From contig SYHD01000215.1 of assembly GCA_005799265.1 (NCBI GenBank), positions 22,984 through 86,983 of the forward strand: a stretch of DNA of 64,000 nucleotides, given 5' to 3'. The DNA is from Planctomycetia bacterium. GTDB lineage: Bacteria; Planctomycetota; Planctomycetia; Gemmatales; Gemmataceae. This document shows, one piece after another, positions 3,948-48,170 of the stretch (position 1 is the stretch's first letter; every line of letters begins with the position of its first letter). The notes under the pieces are model-generated. The model saw nothing but the letters and a program-made list of their open reading frames with translations, was not told the origin of the DNA and did not search any database. The position numbers and the translations under genes are program-made.

Positions 3948-3978
3948 GGGATTCTCCTAATCTACATAAGAAAGCCAT

Positions 3979-4044: not shown

Positions 4045-4053
4045 GTGGCGGAA

Positions 4054-20206: not shown

Positions 20207-20230
20207 GCGGGCATTCTATAACGACGGCCT

Positions 20231-20289
20231 CGTTTAGCGTTCGCAGTAAACCTGCGAGCCGCCTGGCGTTTCACTGCGAACGCTAAACG
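20231..20289. repeat. Palindromic repeat, PAL-1 subfamily a (CGTTTAGCGTTCGCAGT arms)
   Basis: CGTTTAGCGTTCGCAGT (20231-20247) is the perfect reverse complement of 20273-20289, with a 25-nt loop that extends the stem (AAAC/GTTT). Lies in the intergenic gap between co-directional minus genes. Confidence 0.9.
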
Positions 20290-20297
20290 AAAGGCGA

Positions 20298-22236: not shown

Positions 22237-22428
22237 CGCAGCGATTGTGGTTCATCTTGTTTTTTCGGCCTCCTTTATTTACCCTTGTTCCGGTAGCCAA
22301 GCGGCACCGTCGCGCCAGGATGGCGTGATGCCCCCCAAGCGATGCCGCTCCTTTGCGGCGCCGGCGCGAGTAGGTCCTCTTCGCGATTCACCGACGCCAG
22401 CTTAGCTTCGCACAGCAAGGATGCTTGC

Positions 22429-24138
22429 ATGTTCCGATTCGACATCGTCTCGCTCGTCGGACTGCTTCTGATCGCGCTGATTGGCAACGGCTATGCCGAT
22501 CCGCAAGATGAAAAAAATGACCGCATCCAGAAAACTCTTGCATTGCAGACGGCACTGGCACAGGCTCGCGTTCATCTGACGGACCGGCAGTCGCAAAAAG
22601 CCGTCGAGATCCTCGAACAGCAACTCCCCCATGTGAATGGCAACAACGCCTACCTGATCGCTCTGCGCCAGGCGTACCGCGCCTACATCATGGATCTATA
22701 CTTCGCGGGCCAACCGGAACAGGCCCGCCGCTATCACGAACGGCTCTGCATTATCGATCCGAGTGCCGCCAACGACCGGGCCTTGCAACCCCAACAGCCT
22801 GATCCAGAGCCGCGCAAGTTCGAGCCGGATCCTCCCAAGCAGGCGGCCAAGCTGCCATTTCCGCTCTTCAAGTTGCCGAGCTTTAACATTCCCTTCGCCA
22901 AACGAGACGAGAAAGGCCCGCCGACTGTGAAGCTGTCGATGGCACGTGGCGTGTCCGATGACGCGGTCATCGACGATCCCTTCGCGGTCCATAATCGGCG
23001 TGAAGCGATCGCGGTCGGTCCGTCTCCGGTTGTCAATCCGGCCCGAGCGCGGGACCTGCTCATGCGCGGCGCCGATGAATTTCGCAACGAACGCTACGCC
23101 GAGGCGCGTCACTGCTTCGAGCAGGCATATCAGGCGGATCAATCGACGTTGCCGACATACAAGACGCAGTGGGCGTATTGCATCATCAAAGGGGTCGCTG
23201 ACGTGATGGAGCAACCGGGCGTCTTGCCGGCACGCTTACCCGAACTCAAGCAGCAAGTCGAAGGCGCGATTGGCATGTCGCCGGGAAACTTCATGGCGGT
23301 GGGACAGCAGCTCCTGGAGCGGCTCGAACAGAAAGCCAAGCACAACGCCGTGCTGCCGCGGGGTCAGACTTTCAAGATCAAGCACTGGGGCAAGAATGAG
23401 GGAGGCTGGCTGGTCGCAGAGACGCCGCACTTCCACATTTTTCATCGCAAGGACAATGACTTCGCCGAGCGTGTCGCCCGGATCGCCGAACACACACGTT
23501 TAACTATGTATCGCAAATGGTTCAACAGTGACGGTCATGAATGGCAGCCCGTTTGCGACCTGATCCTGCATGCCAACGGCGCCGATTATACGCACATGAC
23601 CGGCGTCCAGGGCAACTCGCCGGGGCATTCGCGTATCGAGAGCGATCCCTCTGGTCGCGTCATTGATCGCCGCATGGATCTCCGTCTCGATATTCCGCGC
23701 ATGATGGACGACGTCCTGCCTCACGAAACCACGCACGTCGTGCTCGCGGGCATGTTCGGCAACGCCCCGGTGCCGCGCTGGGCGGATGAAGGCATCGCGG
23801 TTCTTTCGGAGCCGGATGACAAGGTCAATCAGCATCGCCAGAATTTGCTCAAGCATCACAAGGACGGTCTGCTCTTCGGCCTGAAGCAGCTAATGGAGTT
23901 GAAAGACTATCCGCACCCGCGTCAGATCTCCGCGTTCTACGCCCAGAGTGTCGTCCTGGTCGAATTCCTCACGCACAAACGCGGGCCCAAGACGCTGACC
24001 GATTTCGTGAAAGACTCCGTCCACTACGGTTACGACACGTCCTTACAACGCCATTATGGCTTGACGTTCGCCCAGCTCGAACAGGAATGGCGCACTCAAA
24101 TCATCGACAATCCGCAACGTCTGGCGGCGACGAAGTGA
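22429..24138 (+). CDS. Membrane-anchored TPR-like + peptidase MA-like (HExxH) protein
   Basis: ATG 22429 gives MFRFDIVSLVGLLLIALIG. C-terminal HETTHVVLAGMFGN...WADEGIAVLSE (HExxH plus a distal Glu). Confidence 0.6.
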   Translation: MFRFDIVSLVGLLLIALIGNGYADPQDEKNDRIQKTLALQTALAQARVHLTDRQSQKAVEILEQQLPHVNGNNAYLIALRQAYRAYIMDLYFAGQPEQARRYHERLCIIDPSAANDRALQPQQPDPEPRKFEPDPPKQAAKLPFPLFKLPSFNIPFAKRDEKGPPTVKLSMARGVSDDAVIDDPFAVHNRREAIAVGPSPVVNPARARDLLMRGADEFRNERYAEARHCFEQAYQADQSTLPTYKTQWAYCIIKGVADVMEQPGVLPARLPELKQQVEGAIGMSPGNFMAVGQQLLERLEQKAKHNAVLPRGQTFKIKHWGKNEGGWLVAETPHFHIFHRKDNDFAERVARIAEHTRLTMYRKWFNSDGHEWQPVCDLILHANGADYTHMTGVQGNSPGHSRIESDPSGRVIDRRMDLRLDIPRMMDDVLPHETTHVVLAGMFGNAPVPRWADEGIAVLSEPDDKVNQHRQNLLKHHKDGLLFGLKQLMELKDYPHPRQISAFYAQSVVLVEFLTHKRGPKTLTDFVKDSVHYGYDTSLQRHYGLTFAQLEQEWRTQIIDNPQRLAATK

Positions 24139-24145
24139 TCCATCA

Positions 24146-24206
24146 GTTAGTCGGACGCGCAAGCGACGGACATAGAAAAAATCCGTCGCTTGCGCGTCCG
24201 GCTAAC
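24146..24206. repeat. Palindromic repeat, PAL-2 (GTTAG(T/C)CGGACGCGCAAGCGACGGA arms), intergenic copy
   Basis: 25-nt arms 24146-24170 and 24182-24206 with a single T.G position; the 11-nt loop is CATAGAAAAAA. Lies between convergent genes. It contains the TAG stop (24202-24204) of the minus-strand gene. Confidence 0.95.
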
Positions 24207-26442
24207 GGCTGATCGCCTCGATCTGGTAGCTGACGGATTTCTCGCCATGCCACACGACAGGCATTGCAGCGCCGTCGAGCAAGTCGATCATCAAATTCCG
24301 ACATTGCGCCTTTGATAGATAGCGGTCCGTCCAGTCTTCGGGTGAAAGCTTGATACGTTGCGGCCGATCGAACGTGATGCGCACGCTGCCGCCGAAGCGT
24401 GTCAACTTCACGGCGGTGATGTGATCCTGATATTCCGTCGTCGCCGCGGCCCATTGACCCTTCGATTGCAATTCGATGATCGTCGCGACTTCCTTGGCCT
24501 GCCTGCCTGCTTCCTTGAGAAAAATAGGAATCGTCTCGTACAGTTCTGTAACTTTGTCCTGCCCTGTCGAATTCGCCGAGGTTTCGATGCGGACCTTGCT
24601 TGAATCAAACGTGAAGGTGCGCGTGAGCTGGATGCGACCTTCGAGAACCTTGCCCTGGCCCAATTGTTCGGCCGGGAGCGTGCCGGTGATCTTGACGATG
24701 CTGGCGTTCTTGTCCTGACGAGTGATCACTTCGGGTTGGCGAATGCGCGCGGACGTGAAGACCTTGCCGTTGTACTTGGCGCCGCTGACCGCGTGCAGAG
24801 GCCAGAGGCGCCAGTCTTCGACGAGGTCAAAGCTTTTGTCCCAGGAGTTGCCGCCGCGCCGGCCGAGAATGACCGCGCCGGTTGTCGGGGTCCAGAACGC
24901 GGAGAGTTGCCCGCCGCCGAAGCCAAGTGGGCCGGCGAATTTGAAATGGCCGTCTTCCAGGCTTGGATAGCCGATGGGGCCGCCGTGCACGATGGCGGCA
25001 TAAGTGTTTTGTTTGGCGACAGTAAACGCGCCGGCGAAATCGCGCACAAAGTTCTCGGTACGCAGAAACGGCGATTTCAACCACGGGGAGTTTTCGTCCT
25101 GCAGCTTGAGCCGTTTCGCATGACTGCCGGGTGGATAGAATTCGTAGCCGTAGTTGACCGTGGCGGGAAAATTGAACGATTGCCACAAGCGCCAGCGCCA
25201 GGGATGCGAGGTCAGTTGTTCATTCTTGAGAAAGCCTCCTCCCTTGGGATTGACGGGGTTCTCCGCCAACTGTTGGCGAAACGCGCTGGCACGCTGATCG
25301 GGAGCTTTCCTGAGGTCATCCGCGGTCGGCAACTTGTTCAAATAAACCGCTTCATCGGTCACCAGTGAGGCGAAGGAGTCGCGCGCGATGCCCCATTCCC
25401 ATTGGTCACCCCAGGCGTCGCTCGATGTGCGCGAATTGAAATGGGTGGGCCCAATGTATCGCCCGTCCGGCTCCGGCAGGCACAGATGCGCACGCAAGCG
25501 ATAACAGCGCGTGACCGCGTCCTTGGCGAATGGCCAATCGCTGGCGAGCGCCGCCCAGGTCGCGAAGAAATTGCTCATGCCCTGGTAGCCCATATCGATG
25601 CCGCGCTGATCGAGAAAAAATCCCGCCGGGTGAAAGTGTTGCGGATCGGTGAACAGCCGTCGCGCATACGCCTCGGCGTCTTTCGTGAACGCCGGATCTT
25701 TGAGCGCCTGGCTGACGTACCACAGTCCGACCGTGGCGACGACTTCCAGGTTCGGCTCCTCTCCCTCCGGCCCCCAGTCGAACACGCGCTGCCCCATGCG
25801 CCGCAACCCGGTTTCATATGCTTTTTGCACATCAACGGGCAGCTGGTCCTTGAAGCCCGCATACGGATGCGCAAACAGGATCAATTGGCTGCCGAACCAG
25901 TCCGAGCGACTGCCGCCGCGTTCGGGATGGTGTTCGAGCTGATCGTCGAGCATCATCAGATGAATGCTCGCCGTGACGAAAGCGCGCAGCTTCAAGGCGC
26001 GATTGTGATAGTAAGGATTGCCTGGTTGTTTCCAGGTGACGAAGGCGATCAACGCCTCCGGACAAACCGGCGGCACGTGGACGCCTTCCGGGCGCTCCAA
26101 TGCGCTCAAGACGAACAGCGCCGGTGGCGCGTTTACCGCCGGGGCGCCGCGTTTGGTCCCGACCAGCGGCTGAGCCATAAGCGTGAACAGGTGCTGGCGA
26201 TATTGGTACTCGGCATCGGCGGGCGTCGGCTGAGACGTGATCGGCTCCTTCACGCCGTGGGTAAAGTCCTTCTCGGATAGCGTTGCCATGAACGCACGGA
26301 GTTGCTTTTGATACGCATGCTCCTGCGGCAGGGTTGCCCGCGGCGGCGGCGGCACGGGCACTTTTCGACCCCCCGCGCGAACTGCGGGATTGCCGAGGAT
26401 CAACAGGCCAAGAATGCACGCCGCGATTTTTTGTGCGTTCAT
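24202..26442 (-). CDS. Large secreted hypothetical protein
   Basis: ATG 26442 gives MNAQKIAACILGLLILGNPAVRAG. 746 aa with no family recognised. The upstream 65 codons of the track ORF are discarded. Confidence 0.6.
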   Translation of the reverse strand: MNAQKIAACILGLLILGNPAVRAGGRKVPVPPPPRATLPQEHAYQKQLRAFMATLSEKDFTHGVKEPITSQPTPADAEYQYRQHLFTLMAQPLVGTKRGAPAVNAPPALFVLSALERPEGVHVPPVCPEALIAFVTWKQPGNPYYHNRALKLRAFVTASIHLMMLDDQLEHHPERGGSRSDWFGSQLILFAHPYAGFKDQLPVDVQKAYETGLRRMGQRVFDWGPEGEEPNLEVVATVGLWYVSQALKDPAFTKDAEAYARRLFTDPQHFHPAGFFLDQRGIDMGYQGMSNFFATWAALASDWPFAKDAVTRCYRLRAHLCLPEPDGRYIGPTHFNSRTSSDAWGDQWEWGIARDSFASLVTDEAVYLNKLPTADDLRKAPDQRASAFRQQLAENPVNPKGGGFLKNEQLTSHPWRWRLWQSFNFPATVNYGYEFYPPGSHAKRLKLQDENSPWLKSPFLRTENFVRDFAGAFTVAKQNTYAAIVHGGPIGYPSLEDGHFKFAGPLGFGGGQLSAFWTPTTGAVILGRRGGNSWDKSFDLVEDWRLWPLHAVSGAKYNGKVFTSARIRQPEVITRQDKNASIVKITGTLPAEQLGQGKVLEGRIQLTRTFTFDSSKVRIETSANSTGQDKVTELYETIPIFLKEAGRQAKEVATIIELQSKGQWAAATTEYQDHITAVKLTRFGGSVRITFDRPQRIKLSPEDWTDRYLSKAQCRNLMIDLLDGAAMPVVWHGEKSVSYQIEAISR

Positions 26443-26622
26443 CGGATTCCCTTGTGTGATGGGGCGTTTGAACGTGGACATTGTAGCGTGAATCCTTCGG
26501 AAATCTCGTGCATCGGGGCCGGCGGTAGAAGATAATCGAAGTGTCGTCGCGACGACCGATTTCGGTCGTGATGTGTGAAACCGCAAGCTTCGATTGGGGA
26601 TTCTCCTTTTGAGCGCATCCAC

Positions 26623-27792
26623 ATGATCGTCAATCATTCAGTCCTCTCTCTCGCAGCCTTGATCACTGCCGCCGTCGTGCCCGCGTTTGCGCAATTGATC
26701 GGCTACACCGAACTGCGCACGAATCTGCCCGGCGGCCGCCACGCCAATGTCCGCACCATGCGTGCCGCTGTCGTTCGCGGCGATGGCATGGGCCGACGCC
26801 TGCTCGCCGCGGACTTGGCCAACCAGCCCGATGCGTGGACGCAGTTCGCCGGTTGGTCGCCCGATGGTGCAACGGCGATCCTCGGACGCGGCTGGCAAAG
26901 CCCGGACAACGCGAAATGGGAAGAAGAACACAAGACCTTCCGTTTCACCAAGGACGGTTGGCTTCTTGATTCATACCTCGTCGATCTGGCGTCCGGAAAA
27001 ACAGAAAACGTGACGGCCGTCGAACGTGTCAGCTTCTACAACGGCGGACTTTTCTTTTGGCCGAACGACCCGACCAAGCTTGGCTTCACCGCCCTCATCA
27101 ACGGCAACTCGCATCCGTTTCGCATGGATCGCGATGGCCGTAACAAGGTCGATCTTACCAAGGCCTCGCGAGAGTTCGCCTACGGGTTCAACAGTTCACG
27201 CGACGGCAAACGGATCGCGTATCACAAGAATTATCACGTGTATCTCGCGGACGCCGACGGCTCGAACGTCGTCCACGTCAAGACGGGCAAGCCATTCAAC
27301 TTCGTGCCGACCTGGTCGCCCGACGGCAAGTGGGTGCTGTTCCTCAGTGGCGAGCACTACAACTGCCACCCGCATCTTGTCGGATCCGACGGCACGGGGC
27401 TGAAGAAACTCGCCGATCGCGGCGGCTACAAGGGCGTGATCGAATTCCTCGATGTCTTCGATTTCCATCACGGCAGCAGTGACACGCCCGTCTGGGCCGC
27501 GGATGGCAAATCGATCTTTCACGCCGGCCAAGTCGGCAAGAACGTCGAGCTGTTTCAGGTCGAACTCGACGGGAAAAGCACCCAGCTCACGAAGTCCGCA
27601 GACGGTTCCGTTCATTATCATCCGCAGCCATCCCCGGACGGCAAAGCGCTCGTCTACGGCTCGAAACGTGATGGCGTCCGACAACTCTACGTGATGAACC
27701 TCGTTGGTCGCAGCGAGACGCGCTTGACCGATCTCAAGGCCGGGTACGCCGCAATGTGGCCACACTGGCAGCCGACGCCGAACAAGAAATGA
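26623..27792 (+). CDS. Secreted PD40/TolB-like beta-propeller protein
   Basis: ATG 26623 gives MIVNHSVLSLAALITAAVVPAFAQ. Repeated WSPDG / PSPDGK blades. Confidence 0.65.
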   Translation: MIVNHSVLSLAALITAAVVPAFAQLIGYTELRTNLPGGRHANVRTMRAAVVRGDGMGRRLLAADLANQPDAWTQFAGWSPDGATAILGRGWQSPDNAKWEEEHKTFRFTKDGWLLDSYLVDLASGKTENVTAVERVSFYNGGLFFWPNDPTKLGFTALINGNSHPFRMDRDGRNKVDLTKASREFAYGFNSSRDGKRIAYHKNYHVYLADADGSNVVHVKTGKPFNFVPTWSPDGKWVLFLSGEHYNCHPHLVGSDGTGLKKLADRGGYKGVIEFLDVFDFHHGSSDTPVWAADGKSIFHAGQVGKNVELFQVELDGKSTQLTKSADGSVHYHPQPSPDGKALVYGSKRDGVRQLYVMNLVGRSETRLTDLKAGYAAMWPHWQPTPNKK

Positions 27793-27806
27793 CCACGCGC
27801 GATCCT

Positions 27807-30800: not shown

Positions 30801-30812
30801 AATTCGTTTCAT
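27807..30812 (-). CDS. PVC-type haem-binding CxxCH protein (beta-propeller dehydrogenase-like domain + HEAT-like repeats + C-terminal cytochrome c)
   Basis: ATG 30812 gives MKRIVAALILHVLIGFVGQSGAQ. N-terminal propeller (RGGLWVLNPPYLLFY). A long helical-repeat middle. C-terminal GKKLYTARCANCHTLHARGGIVGPDLT. Confidence 0.75.
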   Translation of the reverse strand: MKRIVAALILHVLIGFVGQSGAQTGKDPKAPMPKLAPADAVKSFKVADDLRFEQVLAEPTVRQPLSLSFDERGRLWVVQYLQYPHPAGLKVLSRDIFWRVVYDKIPPPPPHRVGSEFRGRDVISIHEDTQGNGVFDKHTVFLEGLNIVTSVVRGRGGLWVLNPPYLLFYPMKDGVDAPAGDPIVHLQGFGLEDTHSCASNLRWGPDGWLYGAHGSTVSAHVTRPGVKEKPIQMIGQHMWRYHPEKKRFEIYAEGGGNAFGVEIDEKGRVFSGHNGGDTRGFHYVQGASYRKGFEKHGVLANPFSFGFFEAMKANKSQRFTHTFVINEADGLPGQYRGKLFGVEPLHSRVMLSEVKADRSSYETKDLGPIVSSSDTWFRPVDIKPAPDGSLFVADFYEAKIAHLGHNDGVIDRDSGRIYRLSAKDAKHRKSIDLSKKTSAELIELLKCDSRWEREMAQRLFGDRKDRSVLPTLNTHLFASKGQFALECLWAINLSGGFDAALAERALTHPEPQVRAWTVRLLGDDHRLGSKIALKLTELARAERSVQARSQFAASAKRLSASEGLPVVQSLLMRDEDAADIHVPLLLWWAIEAHCEKDRDKVLDMFRESTLWRAKIAEETILSRLMKRYAMAGSQKDYQTCVELFRLAPEKKHGAILLKGFEEAFKGRSIAGLPNELLNEIANLGGGSIAFGVRQGKDDAIAKALAMIQNPKTPLVDRVELIDIFGESKQPRCVEPLLALLSNKESDAIQKATLGSLQAYKDDKIGVEVVNRLPSLTGETREVAESLLVGRREWSRQFVQAVDAGKIEPNSVPLATLRKLLLHRDDAIANLVKKNFGEVKGATTEQMRKQIDRLAVFVQEGKADPYVGKKLYTARCANCHTLHARGGIVGPDLTVFKRDDVANLLLHIVNPNAEIREGYESSVVITENGRTLTGIVIEKDARVVVLRTSDGQRVVLPKDDIAELVGSGISLMPEGLLNGLSDQEVRDLFGYLRSGQPLNERK

Positions 30813-30826
30813 GTTGAATCCGTATT

Positions 30827-30844
30827 CGTTTAGCGTTCGCAGTA
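30827..30844. repeat. PAL-1 half-element (left arm only: CGTTTAGCGTTCGCAGTA)
   Basis: Matches the arm of 20231-20289. In minus orientation, GCGAACGCTAAACG ends 14 nt upstream of ATG 30812. Confidence 0.5.
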
Positions 30845-30931
30845 TCACTCGCGAGTAAGAGATCCCATTGCCACTATTCGACCGTTTCACGAAGAAAAGA
30901 GCAACGAAGAAATCGGAAAGGTGGGACCCTA

Positions 30932-32020
30932 ATGCGGAATCGAATCCTCGGTAAAACCGACCTCGTCGTCAGCGAGCTTGCGTTCGGCAGCCTCTTCACC
31001 TCGTCCTTGGGCCCCGGCTTCGATGAAAGCCGCGCCGCTGTTCACAAGGCGCTCGAACTCGGCATCAACTACTTCGACACTGCGCCCGCCTACGCCAATA
31101 GCGAGGAGGTGCTCGGAAAAATTATGCACGGCATCAAGACGCCGACGATTCTCTCGACCAAACTCGGCGGCCGCCCGCAACCGTTCGAGCCGCGCAACTC
31201 GAAACAATTGCTCGACTCCGCCAAGGAAAGTCTGCGGCTGTTGCACCGCGACGTCATCGACATTCTATTCGTGCACGAGCCGGATCGCCCGCAACAATAC
31301 GATTGGTGGAGCGACCCCGAAGCGGCCTACGGTCCTGTCATCGATGTGCTAGAGCAGCTCAAGAAGCAAGGAGTGATTCGCTACACGGGCCTGGGCGGCA
31401 CGACGATGGCTGAGATGGCGCATCTCATTCGCTCAGACCGCTTCGATGTCGTCCTGACCGCGTTCAACTACAGCGCCCTCTTTCGCGAGGCGACGCACGA
31501 GGTTCTGCCCGCCGCGAAAGAGCGCAACATGGGCATCGTGCTGGGCTCCGTCTTGCAGCAAGGCGGGCTGGGCAGGCGTTATGACGTCGTGGTTCGCGCG
31601 AAGCCGGCGTGGCTGTCGAAAGCACGGCAGCAGCAGTTCCTCGCGTTCTATGAGCTGCTTGACGAGAGCGGGTTATCGATTGTCGAATTGTGCTTGCGCT
31701 TCGCGATTTCGGAAATCACACAGTTAGCCGGACGCGCAAGCGACGGACCGGGCCATCCGTCGCTTGCGCGTCCGGCTAACAATCTGGGCCATTGCGTGCT
31801 CATCGGCCCGAAGACGGCGAAGCAGGTCGAGGATTCCATCAATGCAGTCGAGAAGGGCCCGTTGCCGTCGGATGTGACGAAGCGGCTCGATGAGATCGCG
31901 GCGATGGTGCCGTATCGTCCATTCGAGGAGCCGATGATTCTGCCGCTCAATCGGCCGCGCGATTATTGGGGGCCGGGAAGTTCGAACGTCGGCGCTGGGG
32001 CGAAGGTCGGTAAGCTGTGA
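30932..32020 (+). CDS. Aldo/keto reductase carrying a 20-codon palindrome-derived insertion
   Basis: AKR motifs are present: NYFDTAPAYANSE (Asp/Tyr), LSTKLG (Lys), FVHEPD (His) and C-terminal CVLIGPKTAKQVEDSI. Residues QLAGRASDGPGHPSLARPAN are encoded by repeat 31721-31780. Confidence 0.85.
   Translation: MRNRILGKTDLVVSELAFGSLFTSSLGPGFDESRAAVHKALELGINYFDTAPAYANSEEVLGKIMHGIKTPTILSTKLGGRPQPFEPRNSKQLLDSAKESLRLLHRDVIDILFVHEPDRPQQYDWWSDPEAAYGPVIDVLEQLKKQGVIRYTGLGGTTMAEMAHLIRSDRFDVVLTAFNYSALFREATHEVLPAAKERNMGIVLGSVLQQGGLGRRYDVVVRAKPAWLSKARQQQFLAFYELLDESGLSIVELCLRFAISEITQLAGRASDGPGHPSLARPANNLGHCVLIGPKTAKQVEDSINAVEKGPLPSDVTKRLDEIAAMVPYRPFEEPMILPLNRPRDYWGPGSSNVGAGAKVGKL
31723..31780. repeat. Palindromic repeat, PAL-2, intragenic in-frame copy (in AKR gene)
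   Basis: Perfect 25-nt arms GTTAGCCGGACGCGCAAGCGACGGA / TCCGTCGCTTGCGCGTCCGGCTAAC with an 8-nt loop CCGGGCCA. Confidence 0.95.
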
Positions 32021-32022
32021 TT

Positions 32023-32074
32023 CGTTTAGCCGCGGTTCGCAGAGCCGAGCGGTTCTACGAACCGCGGCTAAACG
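32023..32074. repeat. Palindromic repeat, PAL-1 subfamily b
   Basis: CGTTTAGCCGCGGTTCGCAGA-gccgagcggt-TCTACGAACCGCGGCTAAACG, 21-nt arms with 1 mismatch. Lies between convergent genes. It contains the TAG stop (32068-32070) of the DUF1501 gene. Confidence 0.95.
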
Positions 32075-33504
32075 AGGATCTGATTGACAACCCGTGCTGG
32101 CTCGACGCCGGTCAAACGCATGTCCAATCCCTGATGGCGGTACGTCAAACGCGTGTGATCGATGCCCAGCGTGTGCAGCATGGTTGCGTGCAGATCGCGC
32201 ACGTGGACCGGGTTTTCGACAGCGCGATAACCCAACTCGTCGGTCGCGCCATAGGTGACGCCCCCCTTGATGCCGCCGCCCGCGAGCCACATCGAGTAGC
32301 CGCGGATGTGATGGTCGCGGCCTGGCGCTGAGCCCTTGAATTGCACCATTGGCGTGCGGCCGAACTCACCGCCCCAAATGATAAGCGTATCGTCGAGCAT
32401 GCCGCGAGCCTTGAGATCGCGAACAAGCGCGGCGGAGGGGCCGTCGCAATGGCCGGCGCAGATGCGCATGGTGTTGACGATGCTATCGTGCGTGTCCCAG
32501 TCGCGATGGTAGAGCTGGATGAAGCGGACACCGCGCTCGGCCAAACGACGTGCGAGTAGGCAATTATAGCCGAAGCTGCCGTCGGCCGCGCTGACGCCGT
32601 ACATCTCCTTGACGTGGCGAGGCTCGTTGGCGATGTCCATCAGCTCCGGCACGCTCGTTTGCATGCGGAAGGCCATCTCGTACTGGGCAATGCGCGTCTC
32701 GACTTCGGGATTGCGCGAGCGCTCGTTTTGCACCAGATTCAAGTCGCGAATCGCATCAATCGAGTCACGTTGCAAATTGCGTGATACGCCTGGCGGATTG
32801 CTCAGGTAGTGAACCGGATCGCCCGTGGAAGAGAATGGCACGCCCTGGTAGCGCCCCGGCAGAAAGCCCGCCGCCCATTGACGCTGCGAAATCGGCTGTG
32901 GATTGCGGCCGCCGAAGCTCGTCAACACGATGAAGCCGGGCAGGTTGTCGCTTTCGCTGCCCAGGCCGTAGGTGATCCACGAGCCCATGCTTGGCCGGCC
33001 GGAGATCTGCGTGCCGGTGTTCATCAGCGTGTGGGCGGGATCGTGATTGATCTGATCGGTGTGCATCGAGCGGACGATGGCGATGTCGTCGGCGATGCGG
33101 CTGATGTTCGGCAAAAGCTCTGATATCTCTTGCCCCGACTGCCCGGCCCGACGAAAGCGAAACTGTGGCGCGAAACATTTTAGCTCGGCGTTTTGAAGCT
33201 GGGCGATCGGCTGGCCGCGCGTGAACGATTCCGGCATCGGTTGCAGGTGTAGGCGCGCGAGCGCCGGCTTGTGATCGAACAATTCCAGATGCGACGGGCC
33301 GCCGGACATGTACAGGAAGATGACGCGCTTTGCCGTCGGCGCGAAGTGCGGCAAGTTGTTAGCCGAACGCGCAAGCGACGGCTGGGCTTGTTCGTCGCTT
33401 GCGCGTCCGGCTAACGTCATTGACGCCAGGGCTGCGGCGCCGAAGCCGATGGACGAGTCGCCGAGGAAGGCGCGGCGCGTGAGGTTGAGCTTCGTGTTGT
33501 ACAT
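32068..33504 (-). CDS. DUF1501 family protein (sulfatase-like, Tat signal) carrying a 20-codon palindrome-derived insertion
   Basis: ATG 33504 after GGAGAT. TRRAFLGD twin-arginine motif. SGGPSHLELFDHKP, HRDWDTH and GGEFGRTP motifs. Residues TLAGRASDEQAQPSLARSAN are encoded by repeat 33358-33417. Confidence 0.85.
   Translation of the reverse strand: MYNTKLNLTRRAFLGDSSIGFGAAALASMTLAGRASDEQAQPSLARSANNLPHFAPTAKRVIFLYMSGGPSHLELFDHKPALARLHLQPMPESFTRGQPIAQLQNAELKCFAPQFRFRRAGQSGQEISELLPNISRIADDIAIVRSMHTDQINHDPAHTLMNTGTQISGRPSMGSWITYGLGSESDNLPGFIVLTSFGGRNPQPISQRQWAAGFLPGRYQGVPFSSTGDPVHYLSNPPGVSRNLQRDSIDAIRDLNLVQNERSRNPEVETRIAQYEMAFRMQTSVPELMDIANEPRHVKEMYGVSAADGSFGYNCLLARRLAERGVRFIQLYHRDWDTHDSIVNTMRICAGHCDGPSAALVRDLKARGMLDDTLIIWGGEFGRTPMVQFKGSAPGRDHHIRGYSMWLAGGGIKGGVTYGATDELGYRAVENPVHVRDLHATMLHTLGIDHTRLTYRHQGLDMRLTGVEPARVVNQILV
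33358..33415. repeat. Palindromic repeat, PAL-2, intragenic in-frame copy (in DUF1501 gene)
   Basis: 23-nt arms 33358-33380 / 33393-33415 with one mismatch (A versus G); the 12-nt loop is GCTGGGCTTGTT. Confidence 0.9.
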
Positions 33505-33534
33505 GGACTTATCTCCGAGCCGCATGTGGCGAAA

Positions 33535-35862
33535 TCAGTTTCGCGTCAAAGCCTCATCGAGATTGAACAGCACGCGTGCCACGTTTGTCCATGCCGCCAG
33601 TTCGACGACGTTGACGCCGTCCGCCCGCGGCGTCTGGCCTACGCTCACGAGCTTGGCCGCAGCGGCGGGATCAGCGGCGAAGTGCTTGTGGCTCTGCGCG
33701 AGCAGTCTGCCAACGAGGGCAGCCTCGCGATCTTGCGGCGAGCGCGACAGCACTTGCCGCCACGCCCAGCGGATGCGTGCGGCTTCGTCGTTGCCGCCCT
33801 CGCGCAGGATGCGCGTTGCGAACACGCGTGAGCATTCGGCGAACGTCGGATCGTTCAACAGCACGAGCGCGGCGAGCGGCGTATTGCTGATCGGCCGCTG
33901 GGCAGTGCATTCTTCGCGCGTCGGGGCGTCGAACGCCTTCAGCATCGGGTGCAGATAGGTGCGCTGCCAATGGGTGTAGACGCCGCGGCGGTATTGATCA
34001 AGCCCCTTGTCGGCGACGTAGGTCCGTTTCGGGAAGTTGAGGAATGCATAATAGCCGTCTGGCTGTTGCGGCCTCACGCTGCGTCCGCCGACGCGATCAA
34101 CCAGAAGCCCACTGACGACGAGCGACTGATCGCGAATCATCTCCGCCGGCAAACGAAAACGCGACTGGCGCGCGTAGAGACGGTTATCGGGATCGAGCTT
34201 GCGGAGTTCGTCGGATTCGAGCGAGTCCTGGCGATAGGTGCTTGAGGTAACGAGAAGCTTGACGAGCTGCTTGACATTCCAACCGCTGGCGACGAATTCG
34301 ATCGCGAGCCAATCGAGCAGCTCCGGGTGGGTTGGCCATTCACCCTGCGAGCCCGCGTCCTCCAGTGATTTCGACAGACCGTTGCCGTGGAAGAGGTACC
34401 ACAGGCGATTGACGAACACGCGCGCCGTCTGCGGATGTTCGGGCGATGTGAGCCATTTCGCGAGGTCGAGGCGAGTTGCGCGGTCCTTCCTGGCAATCTG
34501 CTTCATGAACTGAGGCACGCCGGGCTGGACAAGTTCGCCCTTGGTGTCCAGCCAGTCGCCGCGGCTGAGAACGCGAATCGTGCGCGGTGCGACGGCTTTC
34601 GTGATCATCGTCATGCGCTGGCGTTTTTCGAGCTCGGCCAGCAGCTTCTTTTGCGCGGCTAGCTCTTCCACGGCATCGGCTTTGAGTCCGGCGATGCGTT
34701 TGCGCACGGACTCAACTTCCTCACGATCAAGCGGCGACAGTACGTCGATCTCCGGCGGGCGTTTGGTGGGCGTCGCGTCGGGGCCCTTGTAGGCGCCGCG
34801 TTCGTCGATGTCGGCAAAAAACGCGGCGATGCGATAGAAGTCCTTCTGGGTGTACGGATCGTAGCGATGATTGTGGCACTGGGCGCAGCCGATGGTCGCG
34901 CCCATCCACACGGCGCCGAAGTTGCGCACGCGGTCCGCGGAGTAGATTGCGAGGTACTCCTTGTCTTGCGCCCCGCCTTCATGCGTCGTCTGCAGCAAGC
35001 GATTGTAGCCCGTCGCGATGAGCTGATCGGTCGTCGGCTGCGGCAACAAATCCCCGGCGAGTTGCTCCACCGTAAAGCGATCGAAAGGCATGTTGTCGTT
35101 GAACGCCTTGAGAACGTAATCGCGATAAGGCGAGATGTGATGTTCCTGATCGCCGTGATAGCCCACCGTGTCGGCGTAGCGCACCAGGTCGAGCCAGTAC
35201 ATCGCCATGCGTTCGCCGTAGTGCGGCGATGACAACAGGGCATCGACGAGCCGTGCGTAGGCGTCGGGCCGCGCGTCCTTGACGAATGCCTCAACCTGAG
35301 CCGGGGATGGCGGCAGCCCGAGCAGGTCGAAATAAAGCCGGCGCATCAACATGGCCTTGTCGGCTTCCGGCGACGGCGAGACCCCATGCTGGTCGAGCCG
35401 GGCCAGGATGAACGCGTCGATTGGATTGCGTGGCCACGCACCAGCCAGCTTACGCTGGCCGTTCGCCTTGGGCACATCTGGGCGTTTGGGAGGCGCGAAC
35501 GACCAGTGAAGTTGGAATGCGCCGCCTTGGTCGATCCAACGGCGAATCAACTCGATCTCCGCCTTTGTCAGGGTCTTGCCCGATTTCTTGGGCGGCATGC
35601 GTTTGTCGGCGTCGTCGGTGGTGATGCGCGCGAACAGGTCGCTCTCGGCGGGCTTGCCGGCGACGATGACTTTGGCGCCTTCGTCGGTGTCGAGCCGTAG
35701 CTTGGCCTTGCGATGCGTCGAATCGGGACCGTGGCACTGGAAGCACTTATCCGAGAGGATGGGACGGATATCACGGTTGAATTCGACTTTGGGCGCGGAT
35801 TGGGCATGCGCGCCCAGCGGCAAACAAATGAAAACCACCAGAGTGCAGAGCCGGTGAATCAT
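33535..35862 (-). CDS. PSCyt (planctomycete cytochrome c) + DUF1549 + DUF1553 protein
   Basis: Signal peptide, then ILSDKCFQCHGPD (CxxCH). NPIDAFILARL (DUF1549-like). C-terminal FDAPTREECTAQRPISNTPLAALVLLNDP (DUF1553-like). Lies directly upstream of the DUF1501 gene, the classic pairing. Confidence 0.85.
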   Translation of the reverse strand: MIHRLCTLVVFICLPLGAHAQSAPKVEFNRDIRPILSDKCFQCHGPDSTHRKAKLRLDTDEGAKVIVAGKPAESDLFARITTDDADKRMPPKKSGKTLTKAEIELIRRWIDQGGAFQLHWSFAPPKRPDVPKANGQRKLAGAWPRNPIDAFILARLDQHGVSPSPEADKAMLMRRLYFDLLGLPPSPAQVEAFVKDARPDAYARLVDALLSSPHYGERMAMYWLDLVRYADTVGYHGDQEHHISPYRDYVLKAFNDNMPFDRFTVEQLAGDLLPQPTTDQLIATGYNRLLQTTHEGGAQDKEYLAIYSADRVRNFGAVWMGATIGCAQCHNHRYDPYTQKDFYRIAAFFADIDERGAYKGPDATPTKRPPEIDVLSPLDREEVESVRKRIAGLKADAVEELAAQKKLLAELEKRQRMTMITKAVAPRTIRVLSRGDWLDTKGELVQPGVPQFMKQIARKDRATRLDLAKWLTSPEHPQTARVFVNRLWYLFHGNGLSKSLEDAGSQGEWPTHPELLDWLAIEFVASGWNVKQLVKLLVTSSTYRQDSLESDELRKLDPDNRLYARQSRFRLPAEMIRDQSLVVSGLLVDRVGGRSVRPQQPDGYYAFLNFPKRTYVADKGLDQYRRGVYTHWQRTYLHPMLKAFDAPTREECTAQRPISNTPLAALVLLNDPTFAECSRVFATRILREGGNDEAARIRWAWRQVLSRSPQDREAALVGRLLAQSHKHFAADPAAAAKLVSVGQTPRADGVNVVELAAWTNVARVLFNLDEALTRN

Positions 35863-35929
35863 GAGTCTACCTTGCCCGCTTGCGAATTAGCGAGCGCATG
35901 GCGCCAGTCGAGCGCCAAGCCGCACGCGG

Positions 35930-37441
35930 CTACTTCGTTGGAATGTAGTTGAGCGTATAGTAGGCGATGTTGTGCAAAAGCGGCGAGCCTTCCGTGGAAC
36001 GCACACCCGTGGCCGTCAGTTGATGGATGTGCCCTTCCTGGAGTTTGCTCACCCAGATGCGGGCGCTCTTGTTGTCTTTGGCGACGACCACCTTGTCGAT
36101 GGTCGGATTGGTGCGATCGACTTCAGGACTGCCGTAGTCCGCTTGATAGATGTAGGTGTACGTTTCCATCTTGTACGAGGCGATTTCGCCGGCGGTCTGC
36201 GGATCGACCGGTTTGGTGAACGTCAACGTGAAGCCGTCAGGCTCGGCCTTCATCTCGTGGATCTCGAAAGGGACTTTGCCCGTCCACACCAAACGTTCGA
36301 GAGCGAATGGCTTGCCGCCGCGCGAGCCCCAGCCGCGACTGGTGCCACCGACGAACAGCGAACCGTCCGGCGCGAAGCAGGCCGGCACAATGCCGCAACT
36401 GAAACCCTGACGGAACGGATAGCAGGCGCCCTGGTATCGGCCGTTCACCTTTTCGAGGGTGACACGCATGATCGTGCTGTGCGTTTGATCGCCGACGAAG
36501 ACCTGTTTTTCGAACGGGCCGAACTTGCCGCCGGAGAGATCGCATTCGATACCCGCCGCAGATTGCCCCATCTTGCCGTAAGGGAAGAGGATGGCGGTCG
36601 GCGTGAACTGCGGGATGCGTTTCGCCTCGGTCATGATGCGGCTCTTGGTTTTCGGCACGAGCGGGGCCACACCGAGGTATTTTGCTTCGGGATCGTCATA
36701 CCACTTGAAGCCGCCGGGATGGCCGACGAAGCCGCCGACAGTCAAATGCTTGAGGCCGCAGGTTCCGTTCCAGGGGCCTTGATTGTCGGTGTAGAAAACA
36801 TCTCCCTCGGCGTTGAAGCCGACGCCGCCGGGCGAACGCACGCCGCTGGTCGTGGGAATGAACTTGCCGCCGGGCGTGACTTTGCCAGCCCACCCACGGT
36901 ATTTGCTGTTGGAGTTGAAGCTGCCGGTCAGGCAGAGCGTGATCCAGATATCGCCGTTCTTGTCGAAGCGCGAACCGAAGGCGTACTCGTGATAGTCGCC
37001 GTTCACCTCCCAGCCGTCGGTGACGACCTCGAAGGTGTCGGCCTTGCCTTTGCCGCGTGAGTCCTTGATGCGCGTCACGTCGCAGCGCTGCGTGACGTAG
37101 AGCCAGCCGTCCTTCTTGCTGTAGGCGAGGCCGAGGATTTCGTGCATGCCGTGAGCGAAGCGCGTGAACTTGGCGTCCTTGGGATTGTCGGTGAAGGCGT
37201 TCTCGACGATCCAGATCTCGCCGCGGCGCGTGCCGAACGCGACTTTGCCGTCGGGCAGCATTTCGAGGGCGCCCCCTTCGAGCACTTCGCCCTCGGGGAG
37301 CGGCAAGGTGACGAGCTTGTAGTAGGCGTCCTCGCTCTCGGTCGGCTTCGGCTCGCCCGGCTTTTTCTTTTGGGCGACGGCGAACGACGTAGGCAACAAC
37401 CAGAAGCCAATGGCGATAGTCAGAAACAGGACGGCTCGCAT
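35930..37441 (-). CDS. Secreted beta-propeller (glucose/sorbosone dehydrogenase-like) protein with C-terminal Ig-like domain
   Basis: ATG 37441 gives [24 protein letters not shown]. Propeller blades. The C-terminal [33 protein letters not shown] parallels 4054-6405. Confidence 0.6.
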
Positions 37442-37573
37442 GAAAGACTCCAATTGATAACACGATTTCGATTCAGACTAACATTCACGGGCGTGTTGTC
37501 GCCCCGAAGGGGCCCAAACAAATCAGCACAGGGAAACGCAACGGTGTTCGGGAACGAGGCGAGCCGGGTCCAG

Positions 37574-45016: not shown

Positions 45017-45997
45017 CTATTCTAGGACAATCACGCACGGATCAATGTCATCGCGTTTCGAGTTGAGCCCCGGCGTTGGCAGCAACTTTTGCGCGTGTCG
45101 ATCGTAGAGATAGATGTCGCGTTCCCCGTCCCCCTTGATGCGCTCGGAGACGAACACGAGATAGCGGCCATCGGGGCTCAGGTTCGGCGTCTGTTCGTTG
45201 GCGATTGAGTTGACGCCCGGCAATGGCAGAAAATTCTTCTTGGCCCGATCGTACAGATAGATGTCACGGCCCCCCATCCCATCAGGCCGATCCGACGCGA
45301 AGGCGACAAGATTGCCGTCCGCGCTCAGCGACGGTGTCAGATCGGCGAGCGGCGAGTTGAGCTCCGGCAGGGCAGCGACTTTGTCGTTCTGGCGATCGTA
45401 TAGGTAAATATCCGCAGCGCCGACGCCGTCCTTCTGATTGGAGACGTACGCCAGCCAGCGGCCGTCGGCGCTTAGCGCGGGCATCCGTTCGTCGTACCTC
45501 GTCGAATTGACACCGGGTACGTCGAGGTACTTCTTGCTGGCGAATTCAAATAGCATCACGTCCCAGCGTTGGCTCGCACCGGGCTTGTCCCACGAGGCGT
45601 AGGCGATCAGTGTGCCGTCGCTGTTGATCGTCGGATGAAGCTGCGCATTCTTCGACGTGTTGATGGCGGGCGGCGTCACGAGCTTCTTGTCGGCCATGTC
45701 CCAGAGGAAGATCTTGCTGACCTCGTTCTCCAGCTCGGACGCGAAGACGCAAAGCTTGCTGTTCTTCGACAGGATCGCGTGGTAGTCCTGGCGATTGGAG
45801 ACGGTCGGGACGTTGCCGACGATCTTGCCCTGGGCGACGCCGTCGTGTTCGTAGAAGTAAATTTGCGCGTGCTTGGGGCGATCGCGATAGGAGGAGAGGG
45901 CGATCAGGAGGCGGTTAGGAGAGCCTTCTTGCGGCTGCTGTGCAAGGACGAAAAACGGGGCGCAACCGATCAGAAGCAAAAGGAGCCAACGATTCAT
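45017..45997 (-). CDS. Secreted PD40/TolB-like beta-propeller protein
   Basis: ATG 45997 gives MNRWLLLLLIGCAPFFVLAQQ. Repeated P.LS.DG..L.F.S.R..G.G..DIYLYDR blades. It ends 7 nt before the epimerase start. Confidence 0.7.
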   Translation of the reverse strand: MNRWLLLLLIGCAPFFVLAQQPQEGSPNRLLIALSSYRDRPKHAQIYFYEHDGVAQGKIVGNVPTVSNRQDYHAILSKNSKLCVFASELENEVSKIFLWDMADKKLVTPPAINTSKNAQLHPTINSDGTLIAYASWDKPGASQRWDVMLFEFASKKYLDVPGVNSTRYDERMPALSADGRWLAYVSNQKDGVGAADIYLYDRQNDKVAALPELNSPLADLTPSLSADGNLVAFASDRPDGMGGRDIYLYDRAKKNFLPLPGVNSIANEQTPNLSPDGRYLVFVSERIKGDGERDIYLYDRHAQKLLPTPGLNSKRDDIDPCVIVLE

Positions 45998-46017
45998 GAG
46001 AGGTCTCGCAGGATTAT

Positions 46018-46088
46018 CGTGGCATACGATTGGAATCGCGTGATTGCGATGGCAATCCTTAATCACACGATTGGAATCGTATGCCACG
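46018..46088 (-). repeat. PAL-3 element copy B (full 71-nt palindrome)
   Basis: Minus strand: CGTGGCATACGATTCCAATCGTGTGATT-aaggattgccatcgc-AATCACGCGATTCCAATCGTATGCCACG. The arms are complementary except for the central CC and one T/C. The element ends about 20 nt upstream of ATG 45997, and its conserved ATGCCAC ends 21 nt upstream. Confidence 0.85.
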
Positions 46089-46092
46089 TTTT

Positions 46093-47391
46093 TCAGCCCA
46101 CAATCTCCTGCACCGGCAGCGCCTCGCGCAAGAATGGCCGCATCCGGGCGTCGGTCGTGTCGATGCCCACCAGCCGATACAAGCTCGCCGCGAACTGCGC
46201 GGGACCGACCGGTGTGTGCGCGGGGCGTGAACCAGTGGCGTCACTGGCGCCGACGATGCGGCCCCCTTCGAGACCGCCGCCCGCCAGCAGATACGTGAAG
46301 CAATACGGAAAGTGATCGCGCGCTCCGAATCGATTGACGCGCGGCGTGCGGCCGAACTCGCCGCCGGCGACGATCAGCGTGTTCTGCAACATGCGGCGTT
46401 CTTGCAGATCGGTCAAGAGCGCGGTGAGGCCCTGATCAAGCCGTGGGCACAAATGCTGTTCCATGCGGACCATGCCGCCCAGGTCGGCGCCGTGCACGTC
46501 CCAGGCGTCCCAGGCGGGGCCGTCGTACCATTTGATTTGCACGAATCGGCTCCCCGCTTGTACGAGCCGGCGGGCCAGTAAGCACGATTGGCCGAACAGA
46601 TTGGCGCCGTAGCGGTCGCGCAACGCTTCGTTCTCGCGCGCCAGGTCGAATGCGTCGCGCACCTGCGTCGACGTCAGCATGTCGACAGCACGTTGATAGT
46701 TTTGATCCATGCGTTCGATGGCTTCGTTGGCGTGCGCCGTCTGACGGAAGCGATCGACCGCAGTCAAGAGTTCGCGGCGCTGGCTGAAGCGGTCGGCCTG
46801 CATGTCGGCCGAGAGTTGGAACTGCGGCAGCGCGGCGCGGTTGCCCGTCGGGTCGGCGATCTCGACGGGGAAGAACGGGGCGCCCAGACGGCCGCCGCCA
46901 ACGCCGAGCCGCGAGCCGATGTGTACATACGGCGGCATGTTGCCGCGGTAGCCCTGGATGCGCGAGATGACGGCGCCGTATGATGTCGTCTCGCCGGGGA
47001 AGCCGGTCAGCATCGGGATCGGCGAATGGGCGTCGATGTTGTGCGACATCGACCGCACCAGCACGCACTTGTCCATGTGCCGCGACAGGCGCGGCAACAG
47101 CTCGCAGATCTGCATGCCGGGGACGTTAGTCTGGATCGGGCCGTATGGGCCGCGAATCGTGTCGGGGGTATCGGGCTTGGGATCGAAAGTCTCGAAGTGA
47201 CTCGGGCCACCGTCGAGCCAGAGAAAGATGACCGAGACATCGCGGCTGCCGGCGCCGGGCGATGCGGCCGCTTTCGTGCGGAACCAATCCGCGAGCGTAA
47301 GCCCGGCGATGCCCAGCCCGCCGACGGTGAGCATGTCGCGTCTTGTCAGGCCGCTGCAATTGCGAACCGCGGTTTTGCCGATGGTGAACAT
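46093..47391 (-). CDS. DUF1501 family protein (second copy, no adjacent DUF1553 partner)
   Basis: ATG 47391. LTRRDMLTVGG Tat-like motif. LDGGPSHFETFDPKPD, WDVHG and GGEFGRTPRVN. Confidence 0.85.
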   Translation of the reverse strand: MFTIGKTAVRNCSGLTRRDMLTVGGLGIAGLTLADWFRTKAAASPGAGSRDVSVIFLWLDGGPSHFETFDPKPDTPDTIRGPYGPIQTNVPGMQICELLPRLSRHMDKCVLVRSMSHNIDAHSPIPMLTGFPGETTSYGAVISRIQGYRGNMPPYVHIGSRLGVGGGRLGAPFFPVEIADPTGNRAALPQFQLSADMQADRFSQRRELLTAVDRFRQTAHANEAIERMDQNYQRAVDMLTSTQVRDAFDLARENEALRDRYGANLFGQSCLLARRLVQAGSRFVQIKWYDGPAWDAWDVHGADLGGMVRMEQHLCPRLDQGLTALLTDLQERRMLQNTLIVAGGEFGRTPRVNRFGARDHFPYCFTYLLAGGGLEGGRIVGASDATGSRPAHTPVGPAQFAASLYRLVGIDTTDARMRPFLREALPVQEIVG

Positions 47392-47417
47392 GAGCTGCCC
47401 CCCCCCCTGAAATATCG

Positions 47418-48170
47418 TCACGCGGAGCATGCCGATAACGGTCTTACCTGAACGATGAATTGTGCAAATCCGAGTGGGTCCAACGTGCGCTCGATGCGAA
47501 ACGAGCGCCCGAGTACGTCGGAACGCAGCCAGCCTTCCTCGGCCGGCGTCGCTTGATACTCTTCATTTGTGAGTCGAAGTATGTCGAAGACTACGCCGTC
47601 ACCGCGCGCGTCGACAAGCCAATACTCGGGAATCTGTGCCTTCCGGTACAAATCGCGCAGCGTCTTGAGATCCTTGACCTTCGAGCCGTCGCTGACGATC
47701 TCCAGGATGATGTCTGGAGTTCCCTCAAGTCGCATGTAGCCCAGGTTTTGGCCGGGGATCAGCCGCAGTCTCCCGGCCTGCATCGTGGCCCAATGATAGT
47801 AAAGGCCGTCGGGTTCGGTTGACAGGTTGGCCGCCTCGTTAACGAGCAGCATTCGATCCGGCACGAAACGTCCGGTTGGGTATTGTACCAAGAAAGAGTA
47901 GAACATGCCATTGAAGGCCTGTTTGGCCTGGTTGTGCGTAAGGAATTCTTCCATGCTCGCGTCCACCCAGATTTTGCCGTCAAGATAAGAAACCCAGCCA
48001 TTCTCCGGGTACGCGTCAGATTCTACCCAGCGGCGATAGTCATCCAGGCTATCGATCCAACCGGGTATCGTGATCTTGTTCTCGACAACAACATCGGCGC
48101 GGCGCGTAGTCGCCTTCACTGTAGGCACAGCGACGCTCGTTTGCGGCATAGGTGAGAGGACAGTGCTCAT
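47418..48170 (-). CDS. Uma2 (DUF820) family endonuclease-like protein
   Basis: The C-terminal core PDIILEIVSDGSKVKDLKTLRDLYRKAQIPEYWLVD fits the Uma2 PD-(D/E)xK pattern (PD..vEv.S......d...K...Y...gv.eYW.vD). Confidence 0.7.
   Translation of the reverse strand: MSTVLSPMPQTSVAVPTVKATTRRADVVVENKITIPGWIDSLDDYRRWVESDAYPENGWVSYLDGKIWVDASMEEFLTHNQAKQAFNGMFYSFLVQYPTGRFVPDRMLLVNEAANLSTEPDGLYYHWATMQAGRLRLIPGQNLGYMRLEGTPDIILEIVSDGSKVKDLKTLRDLYRKAQIPEYWLVDARGDGVVFDILRLTNEEYQATPAEEGWLRSDVLGRSFRIERTLDPLGFAQFIVQVRPLSACSA

Follow-up and report, generated by a model that had tools for sequence, protein, structure and literature searches.

In-frame copies of a probable REP/REPIN-like palindromic element in a DUF1501 gene and other protein-coding genes of Gemmataceae (Planctomycetota)

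The window analysed here is a 64,000-nucleotide (nt) stretch of a Gemmataceae genome (Planctomycetia bacterium, GenBank assembly GCA_005799265.1, contig SYHD01000215.1, positions 22,984 to 86,983), and the element in question is a short palindrome that is translated as part of a DUF1501 protein encoded on its minus strand. The repeat-coded segment of this protein is probably a copy of a family of non-autonomous palindromic DNA elements of Gemmataceae (Planctomycetota), which resembles the repetitive extragenic palindromic sequences (REPs) and their hairpin-forming doublets (REPINs) of other bacteria.

A repeat search together with translations of the open reading frames (ORFs) was carried out over the whole window, and all positions given below without a locus name are window coordinates (Table 1). 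The search recovers the palindrome with the geometry described in the original prediction, which had been made from the sequence without database searches: two arms of 23 nt (33358-33380 and 33393-33415) with one mismatch, i.e. 96% complementary, that enclose a 12-nt loop. On the minus strand, in the DUF1501 frame, it reads (T)LAGRASDEQAQPSLARSAN. A second copy with almost the same peptide had been claimed for an aldo/keto reductase (AKR) gene, and both an arm scan and translation bear this out; this copy translates as LAGRASDGPGHPSLARPAN, and codons 31721-31780 give QLAGRASDGPGHPSLARPAN. The third copy occupies the gap between the convergent genes 22342..24138 (plus strand) and 24202..26637 (minus strand), and the stop codon of the latter is the TAG in the head of the element (24202-24204). 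The arm consensus is 25 nt long, (TY)GTTAGCCGGACGCGCAAGCGACGGA, and the 6 arm matches in the window, which make up the 3 elements, stand against 0.00 expected from shuffled sequences. Each of the three copies is predicted to form an RNA hairpin, with energies between -46 and -55 kcal/mol and z between -8.5 and -11; the flagged copy stands at -46.4 kcal/mol (z -8.5) and the AKR copy at -54.8 kcal/mol. A scan of the window at the Rfam gathering thresholds returned no match. An assembly artefact was considered and rejected, as contig SXHH01000017.1 of another metagenome-assembled genome (MAG; GCA_005773745.1) contains the window in identical form and the exact DUF1501 protein is found on 8 contigs from several independent assemblies.

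Table 1. Copies of the palindromic element and their host genes. Coordinates without accession are those of the window.
Feature	Locus and position	Strand	Length	Description
Coding copy (flagged element)	window, 33358..33415	-	58 nt	in-frame in DUF1501 gene
Coding copy (second in-frame copy)	window, 31723..31780	+	58 nt	in AKR gene; perfect 25-nt arms, 8-nt loop
Third copy	window, 24146..24206		61 nt	intergenic; 11-nt loop
DUF1501 gene	window, 32068..33504	-	478 aa	length from ATG 33504; maximal ORF to 33525
AKR gene	window, 30932..32020	+	362 aa	homologues ~340 aa
Coding copy	L066		58 nt	citramalate/isopropylmalate synthase (HMGL-like + LeuA_dimer), LeuA_dimer interrupted
Coding copy	L054		76 nt	polyketide synthase, ER-KR linker
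Coding copy	L030		58 nt	DUF6513/pterin-binding protein
Coding copy	L060		58 nt	MGH1/GH63-like hydrolase
Coding copy	L043, 2809-2881 (Gemmataceae MAG JAXMBB010000002.1)		73 nt	TolC-like OEP protein
Coding copy	L014, 2018-2075 (Gemmataceae MAG DAIOGM010000123.1)		58 nt	squalene-cyclase-like repeat protein

To judge from the homologues of the two host proteins, LAGRASD/PSLARPAN is a nucleotide-level repeat and not a protein motif, as had been proposed, because the 120 best DUF1501 homologues (up to 85% identity) all lack the segment, with GRASD, SLARP and SLARS alike absent, and the 119 best AKR homologues (up to ~85% identity) all show a gap across it. In DNA, coding and intergenic copies have the same or nearly the same arms, third codon positions included, whereas their loops differ in both sequence and length, in agreement with the earlier remark that the arms are kept and the loops are not. 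The second DUF1501 paralogue of the window (46093..47430) is also without the segment at the equivalent position, as noted previously.

The element is widely dispersed. An exact-pattern scan with one genome per species yielded at least 93 matching stretches, mostly in MAGs labelled Fimbriiglobus, Limnoglobus, 'Gemmataceae bacterium' and 'Planctomycetota bacterium'; a single MAG contributes at least 20. Matches in unrelated taxa lacked a full arm and were set aside as chance matches. The 76 arm-bearing loci hold 53 doublets and 37 single arms. In doublets the arms always face each other and the total length ranges from 54 to 341 nt, while the spacers are unrelated between copies and are often self-complementary beyond the arms. 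Arm positions 1-24 are 86-100% conserved, position 25 falls to 47%, and the boundaries are sharp; in the flanks there is a preference for T at -2 and for T or C at -1, so that the unit can be written approximately as TYGTTAGCC...GGCTAACRA. Target-site duplications (TSDs) were sought at the 53 doublets and were seen in 1/53 at a length of 2 nt, where 3.9 are expected by chance, and in 0/53 at lengths of 3-9 nt. Twelve doublets lie between convergent genes, 17 between tandem and 2 between divergent genes, often less than 20 nt from a stop codon. One complete doublet of the Gemmataceae type is found at the very edge of a contig binned as Chloroflexi (L079 27-105, JACPOR010000051.1), which is possibly mis-binned or a chimeric join at the repeat.

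Translated in its three frames, the arm GTTAGCC... gives VSRTRKRR, LAGRASDG or a TAG stop, and the complementary arm gives SVACASG followed by a TAA stop, PSLARPAN or RRLRVRL. Doublets of length 1 mod 3 (58, 73 and 76 nt) have a single stop-free frame, LAGRASD-loop-PSLARPAN on either strand, because TAG and TAA close the other two. Since the element is a palindrome with one open frame, nearly the same peptide arises in the AKR and DUF1501 genes even though they lie on opposite strands, and the three-frame reading of both arms upholds the original prediction on this point. Eight of the 53 doublets are situated inside long ORFs with coding-type GC content at the first, second and third codon positions (GC1/GC2/GC3) on both sides. 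All eight read LAGRASD...PSLARPAN, all have lengths of 1 mod 3 and all have Pfam-confirmed hosts (Table 1); this in-frame share (8/53) looks high against that of the classical enterobacterial or Pseudomonas REPs. Copies of 58 nt are in-frame in genes in 6 of 8 cases, against none of the 6 copies of 57 nt convincingly so (Fisher p ~0.009), and single arms are also read in-frame as LAGRASDG (L028, L032 and L074). Three further calls of copies inside genes (L027, L035 and L098) do not stand, since they stem from the artificial 5' extension of maximal ORFs; at L035 the RNase PH start lies downstream of the element.

Contacts between genes and the closed frames do exist and are confined to gene 3' ends: 7 ORFs, among them the window gene 24202..26637, overlap an arm by exactly 5 nt, such that the TAG of GTTAG is their stop codon. 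The idea that intragenic copies use the open frame exclusively therefore holds for every copy inside an intact gene among the 76 loci from other genomes, with the qualification that this is forced by TAG and TAA and that closed-frame contacts occur at gene ends. The frame pattern is a selection filter rather than a designed property: insertions may occur anywhere, and only those that the gene can read persist.

Further hosts were recovered when 1.84 billion cluster representatives were searched with a profile made from six window-derived translations. This search gave 44 proteins at E <= 0.001, mostly short ORFs, a figure that is a floor as representatives rarely carry the insert; among the matches are an ECF sigma factor, whose sigma2-sigma4 linker holds the insert, and a fragment of an RND transporter. 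A word-indexed protein search with the 40-aa doubled peptide gave no candidates.

The DUF1501 gene shows what such a copy can do to its host. The minus-strand ORF 32068..33525 matches the Pfam DUF1501 domain at 4e-159 from residue 65 of the ORF, so that the domain begins shortly downstream of the repeat-coded segment. The true start is likely to be the second ATG, at 33504, because it has a GGAG 8 nt upstream and its 478-aa product is on record in public assemblies. Counted from this start, the segment comprises residues 31-49, and base 33415 also closes the codon of Thr30. The protein reads ...TRRAFLGDSSIGFGAAALASM-TLAGRASDEQAQPSLARSAN-NLPHF, or from its N-terminus MYNTKLNLTRRAFLGDSSIGFGAAALASM-TLAGRASDEQAQPSLARSAN-NLPHF..., that is, a twin-arginine translocation (Tat) signal followed by the repeat-coded segment. 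In a Tat signal (S/T)RRxFLK is followed by a hydrophobic h-region and then by a c-region whose -3 and -1 residues are small; here TRRAFLG (residues 9-15) is followed by DSSIGFGAAALASM, and the c-region is now the repeat-coded LAGRA↓SD (the arrow marks the putative cut). Homologues differ naturally in the length of the part that joins the h-region to the conserved LPHF, which has 9-28 residues.

RR and KRVIFL are 49 residues apart in the query; in 109 homologues this distance ranges from 37 to 62 residues, with a median of 48, and the 20 closest homologues have 37-45. In a DNA alignment, 63 nt of the window, 58 of them belonging to the element, stand opposite the 45-nt linker of the closest orthologue. 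Given a spacing near the homologue median and the change from 45 to 63 nt, the native signal c-region and linker have been replaced by the repeat and not extended by it. The segment had been described earlier as 20 codons inserted between the Tat signal and the mature domain; the position stands, and an insertion gives way to a replacement. Related proteins have AxA-like sites at this junction (e.g. KVAA↓DD), and the repeat-coded AGRA↓S, with small residues at -3 and -1, is a candidate signal-peptidase site. The DUF1501 copy has 2 arm substitutions, both non-synonymous (Gly to Glu and Pro to Ser), which suggests that it may be older than the perfect AKR copy. A parallel case is the squalene-cyclase-like protein at L014, whose N-terminus, MKLSRLLAVLLLIASSAPL-LLAGRASDGVESPSLARPAN-EQEKK, likewise has the element directly after the signal-peptide h-region.

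The same gene is touched by other repeats. At the DUF1501 orthologue P0001 of the closest relative (L004 ~3945-3990) there is no in-frame element, and immediately before the start codon lies a palindrome arm of the CGCTAAACG type; relatives thus differ in the repeats they carry at this locus. In the window, a further palindrome at 32022-32075, with 26-nt arms (TCGTTTAGCCGCGGTTCGCAGAGCCG and its complement) and a 2-nt loop, fills the convergent gap between the AKR and DUF1501 genes. The DUF1501 stop codon is the TAG in the head of this palindrome (32068-32070, minus strand) and GTT is the last codon, so that the gene contains a member of one palindrome family in its 5' part and terminates within a member of a second; the C-terminus is nevertheless equal in length to that of homologues.

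In the AKR the insert amounts to a net gain of 22 residues over all homologues. Alignment with two orthologous loci indicates that 9 ancestral nt, coding for a variable tripeptide (Cys-Pro-Asp), correspond to 11 nt, the 58-nt element and 6 nt, a net DNA gain of 66 nt. An AlphaFold2 model of the protein built with 47 homologues has a mean pLDDT (predicted local distance difference test score) of 81 and a pTM (predicted template-modelling score) of 0.84, and places residues 264-283, with pLDDT below 50, between a helix (250-260) and a strand (288-291). In TIM barrels the helix-to-strand loops lie on the face opposite the catalytic face. The insert is thus predicted to be a disordered loop at a permissive site, away from the active site. 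Around this gene, comparison of window positions 27806-37453 with L101 (Logan SRR12053441) reveals partial synteny of a DUF7133/HEAT/cytochrome c gene, the AKR gene, a DUF7133 gene and a PA14/cytochrome c gene. The L101 relative lacks the DUF1501 and PSCyt/PSD1 pair that sits between the AKR and DUF7133 genes in the window, and this pair has therefore been gained or lost at the locus.

The origin that we favour, a REP/REPIN-like family of non-autonomous elements, would operate as follows. Copies would spread at the DNA level without duplication of the target and would accumulate where they do least harm, just 3' of genes and between convergent or tandem genes. A coding insertion would persist only if the open frame of the element coincides with that of the gene, the total change in length is divisible by 3 and the insertion point is permissive, such as a linker, a surface loop or a signal-peptide/mature junction; other insertions would be retained only within a gene's final codons, with the TAG of the element becoming its stop codon. 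In the DUF1501 gene the copy would have replaced the native Tat c-region and linker, with LAGRA↓SD possibly supplying the -3 and -1 residues to the signal peptidase. Mobility would be conferred by a single-strand transposase of the HUH type (Y1, or REP-associated tyrosine transposase, RAYT), an assignment that fits because TSDs are absent, the build is that of a hairpin, singlets occur and palindrome families with related heads (TCGTTTAGC...) are present in the window. The repeat-coded peptide itself would be neutral.

Several observations weigh against this origin. A search of all six frames of the window and ~0.6 Mb of loci for RAYT-type (Y..NP) and class-3 (NHVH / YV..EQ) motifs found none, in a scan that covered little DNA per genome and would probably miss a single-copy gene; the ORFs between neighbouring arms look ordinary by eye (aminotransferase, membrane protein, shikimate kinase, DUF1080-like, desaturase and RNase PH). 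The head of the element, GTTAG, departs from the canonical GTAG and CGTC tags. Taken alone, an arm forms a weak fold with an unpaired head and a bulged 6-bp stem that carries a GCAA loop (-5.8 kcal/mol, z -1.65), which is matched or bettered by 12 of 200 shuffles. Searches of metagenome contigs with flank-gap-flank patterns found no empty-site allele of either the AKR or the DUF1501 gene, and the insertions are deduced only from comparison with orthologues of 80-85% identity. Neither coding insertion is a clean cut-and-paste event (9 nt to 11 + 58 + 6 nt in AKR; 45 to 63 nt in DUF1501), both were accompanied by sequence replacement, and one has to assume additional local changes. For loci outside the window, gene context comes from a crude home-made codon-usage gene caller, with a Pfam check of the eight in-frame cases only. 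A lead, and only that, is offered by Quentin et al., who describe a Y1 transposase class that is mainly found in Planctomycetes and flanked by atypical structures (PMC6006769).

Substitutions in the coding copies bear on whether the peptide has acquired a role. Of the 10 arm substitutions counted over the eight coding copies, 6 affect third codon positions. In the most diverged copy, that of the TolC-like protein at L043, all 5 arm substitutions are synonymous third-position changes, two of which also abolish the out-of-frame TAG and TAA. This single case hints at purifying selection after insertion in what may be an old translated copy. One could go further and regard the 58-nt form as a recurrent source of translated linker or cleavage modules, a selfish hairpin exapted to rewrite the cleavage regions of export signals, because 6 of 8 copies of this length are in-frame, L043 has only synonymous changes and 2 of the 8 coding copies lie at a signal-peptide/mature junction, where the one in DUF1501 now makes up the c-region and offers AGRA↓S. 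We regard this extension as unlikely; if it were true, an RNase III-size hairpin would possibly also have been placed in the mRNA.

It is alternatively conceivable that the element serves the host as an RNA or DNA structure under selection, e.g. a terminator, an mRNA-stabilising hairpin or an RNase III site, the peptide being a by-product. The perfect 23-25 bp stems with energies of -46 to -55 kcal/mol would suit such a function, and a duplex of this length is long enough in principle for RNase III. Copies that lie flush with gene 3' ends, mostly in convergent or tandem arrangement, and arms that are conserved across genera point the same way, and comparable roles have been proposed for REPs (PMC3733652). 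However, no U-tract follows the hairpin and no Rfam match was obtained, and the occurrence of copies at unrelated loci together with their absence from orthologous positions fits spread rather than local conservation. A structural role would leave the multiplication of copies unexplained, and it complements the REP/REPIN-like origin more than it replaces it. As the origin of the element it is improbable; under it the coding copies would act to throttle translation or mRNA half-life of the DUF1501 and AKR genes.

A classical miniature inverted-repeat transposable element (MITE) is a similarly doubtful proposition. Under it the arms would be the terminal inverted repeats of an internally deleted insertion sequence (IS) with a DDE transposase, moved by cut-and-paste, and the in-frame copies would be accidental. 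The arms are indeed terminal, inverted and highly conserved around a variable, dispensable interior, and in-frame intragenic MITEs are known (PMC10969869). The lack of a TSD at any length from 2 to 9 nt nevertheless removes the defining feature of a MITE; single arms are common (37 beside 53 doublets), the spacers are unrelated and so are not deletion derivatives of one parent, and no IS with such ends is present in the examined loci.

Finally, it is very improbable that selection at the amino-acid level acts on LAGRASD...PSLARPAN as a functional protein module, the palindrome being incidental, and as an origin this is close to refuted: the peptide does recur in many unrelated proteins, directly after a signal-peptide h-region in 2 of 8 cases and with exclusively synonymous arm changes at L043, but identical DNA lies in intergenic regions, the arms agree at synonymous sites in most coding copies, the loop-coded residues vary freely, the AlphaFold2 model gives the segment no structure and all orthologues function without it.

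The window contains further palindromes. Those at 3974-4049 and 20230-20290 share with the one at 32022-32075 a CGTTTAGC head similar to the (TY)GTTAGCC head of the element studied here, which suggests that several related REP-like families may coexist in one genome. Another family (GTGGCATACGATTGGAATCG...) has two copies, at 46018-46088 and 9339-9403, the former in the short gap between the second DUF1501 paralogue and the ORF 45017..46087 that ends upstream of it. An unrelated, AT-richer palindrome with 31-nt arms lies at 9148-9240.

If the REP/REPIN-like origin is correct, a free-living phylum with large genomes would join the short list of those in which palindromic selfish DNA is routinely translated within housekeeping genes. 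The case would be an unusually clean one, with one peptide in both orientations and a frame arithmetic that predicts which gene copies survive. For annotation, the element would account for odd 20-residue inserts and repeat-donated stop codons in planctomycete MAGs, and a LAGRASD/PSLARPAN 'motif' should not be taken as evidence for homology between proteins. With the DUF1501 copy, nature may have provided a test of the extent to which a Tat signal c-region tolerates exchange.

Among known systems, integron attC sites are superficially similar in being imperfect palindromes of ~57-140 nt with ends like GTTRRRY / RYYYAAC and a variable centre. The order in attC is 5'-RYYYAAC...GTTRRRY-3'. We rejected this identity, as the element has the reversed order 5'-GTTAGCC...GGCTAAC-3', its copies stand singly among housekeeping genes and there are neither cassette arrays nor intI.

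The resemblance to REPs and REPINs is closer. REPINs are made of conserved inverted REPs with a spacer that varies in length and sequence while the hairpin is kept, and singlets are their decaying remnants (Bertels & Rainey 2011; PMC3337134). The Gemmataceae element shares with these doublets the two inverted units of ~25 nt, the variable spacer that keeps the hairpin, the singlets and the absence of a TSD. REPs are located mostly between unidirectional and convergent ORFs, near their 3' ends (Di Nocera et al. 2013; PMC3733652), and intragenic REPs that code for 20-30 residues have been catalogued in several phyla (PMC3733652). Here too, the element is dispersed and multi-copy, with an extragenic bias and a minority of copies lying inside ORFs and coding for 20-30 residues, and, as in REP-rich genomes, several families with related heads coexist. 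It is thus an inverted doublet, dispersed in many copies with singlets, biased to extragenic sites and free of TSDs, as REPs and REPINs are. It differs from REPs in its head, (TY)GTTAG as opposed to GTAG/CGTC, in the weak stem-loop of the single unit and in that motif scans of the window and the ~0.6 Mb of loci turned up no cognate RAYT; it is a putative member of the RAYT-associated REPs. Gemmataceae are not listed in the REP surveys, and neither PMC3733652 nor PMC6006769 contains the word 'Gemmata'.

Rickettsia palindromic elements (RPE; Ogata et al. 2000), summarised in PMC10969869, are the classic example of palindromes read in-frame. On that account they have in common with the Gemmataceae element in-frame copies in unrelated housekeeping genes, a conserved peptide, fold-compatible sites and the existence of non-coding copies; the Gemmataceae element is in-frame in eight Pfam-confirmed unrelated genes and in the hosts from the profile search. 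The same account gives RPEs a length of ~100-150 bp and places them in obligate intracellular alpha-proteobacteria, whereas the Gemmataceae element is commonly 58 nt long, belongs to free-living Planctomycetota with large genomes and yields the same peptide in both orientations through its near-perfect palindromy. It may be regarded as an analogue of RPE-1 to RPE-10, set apart from them by length and host phylum. Intragenic REPs and the RPEs of Rickettsia are thus known, and what is new is an example in Gemmataceae.

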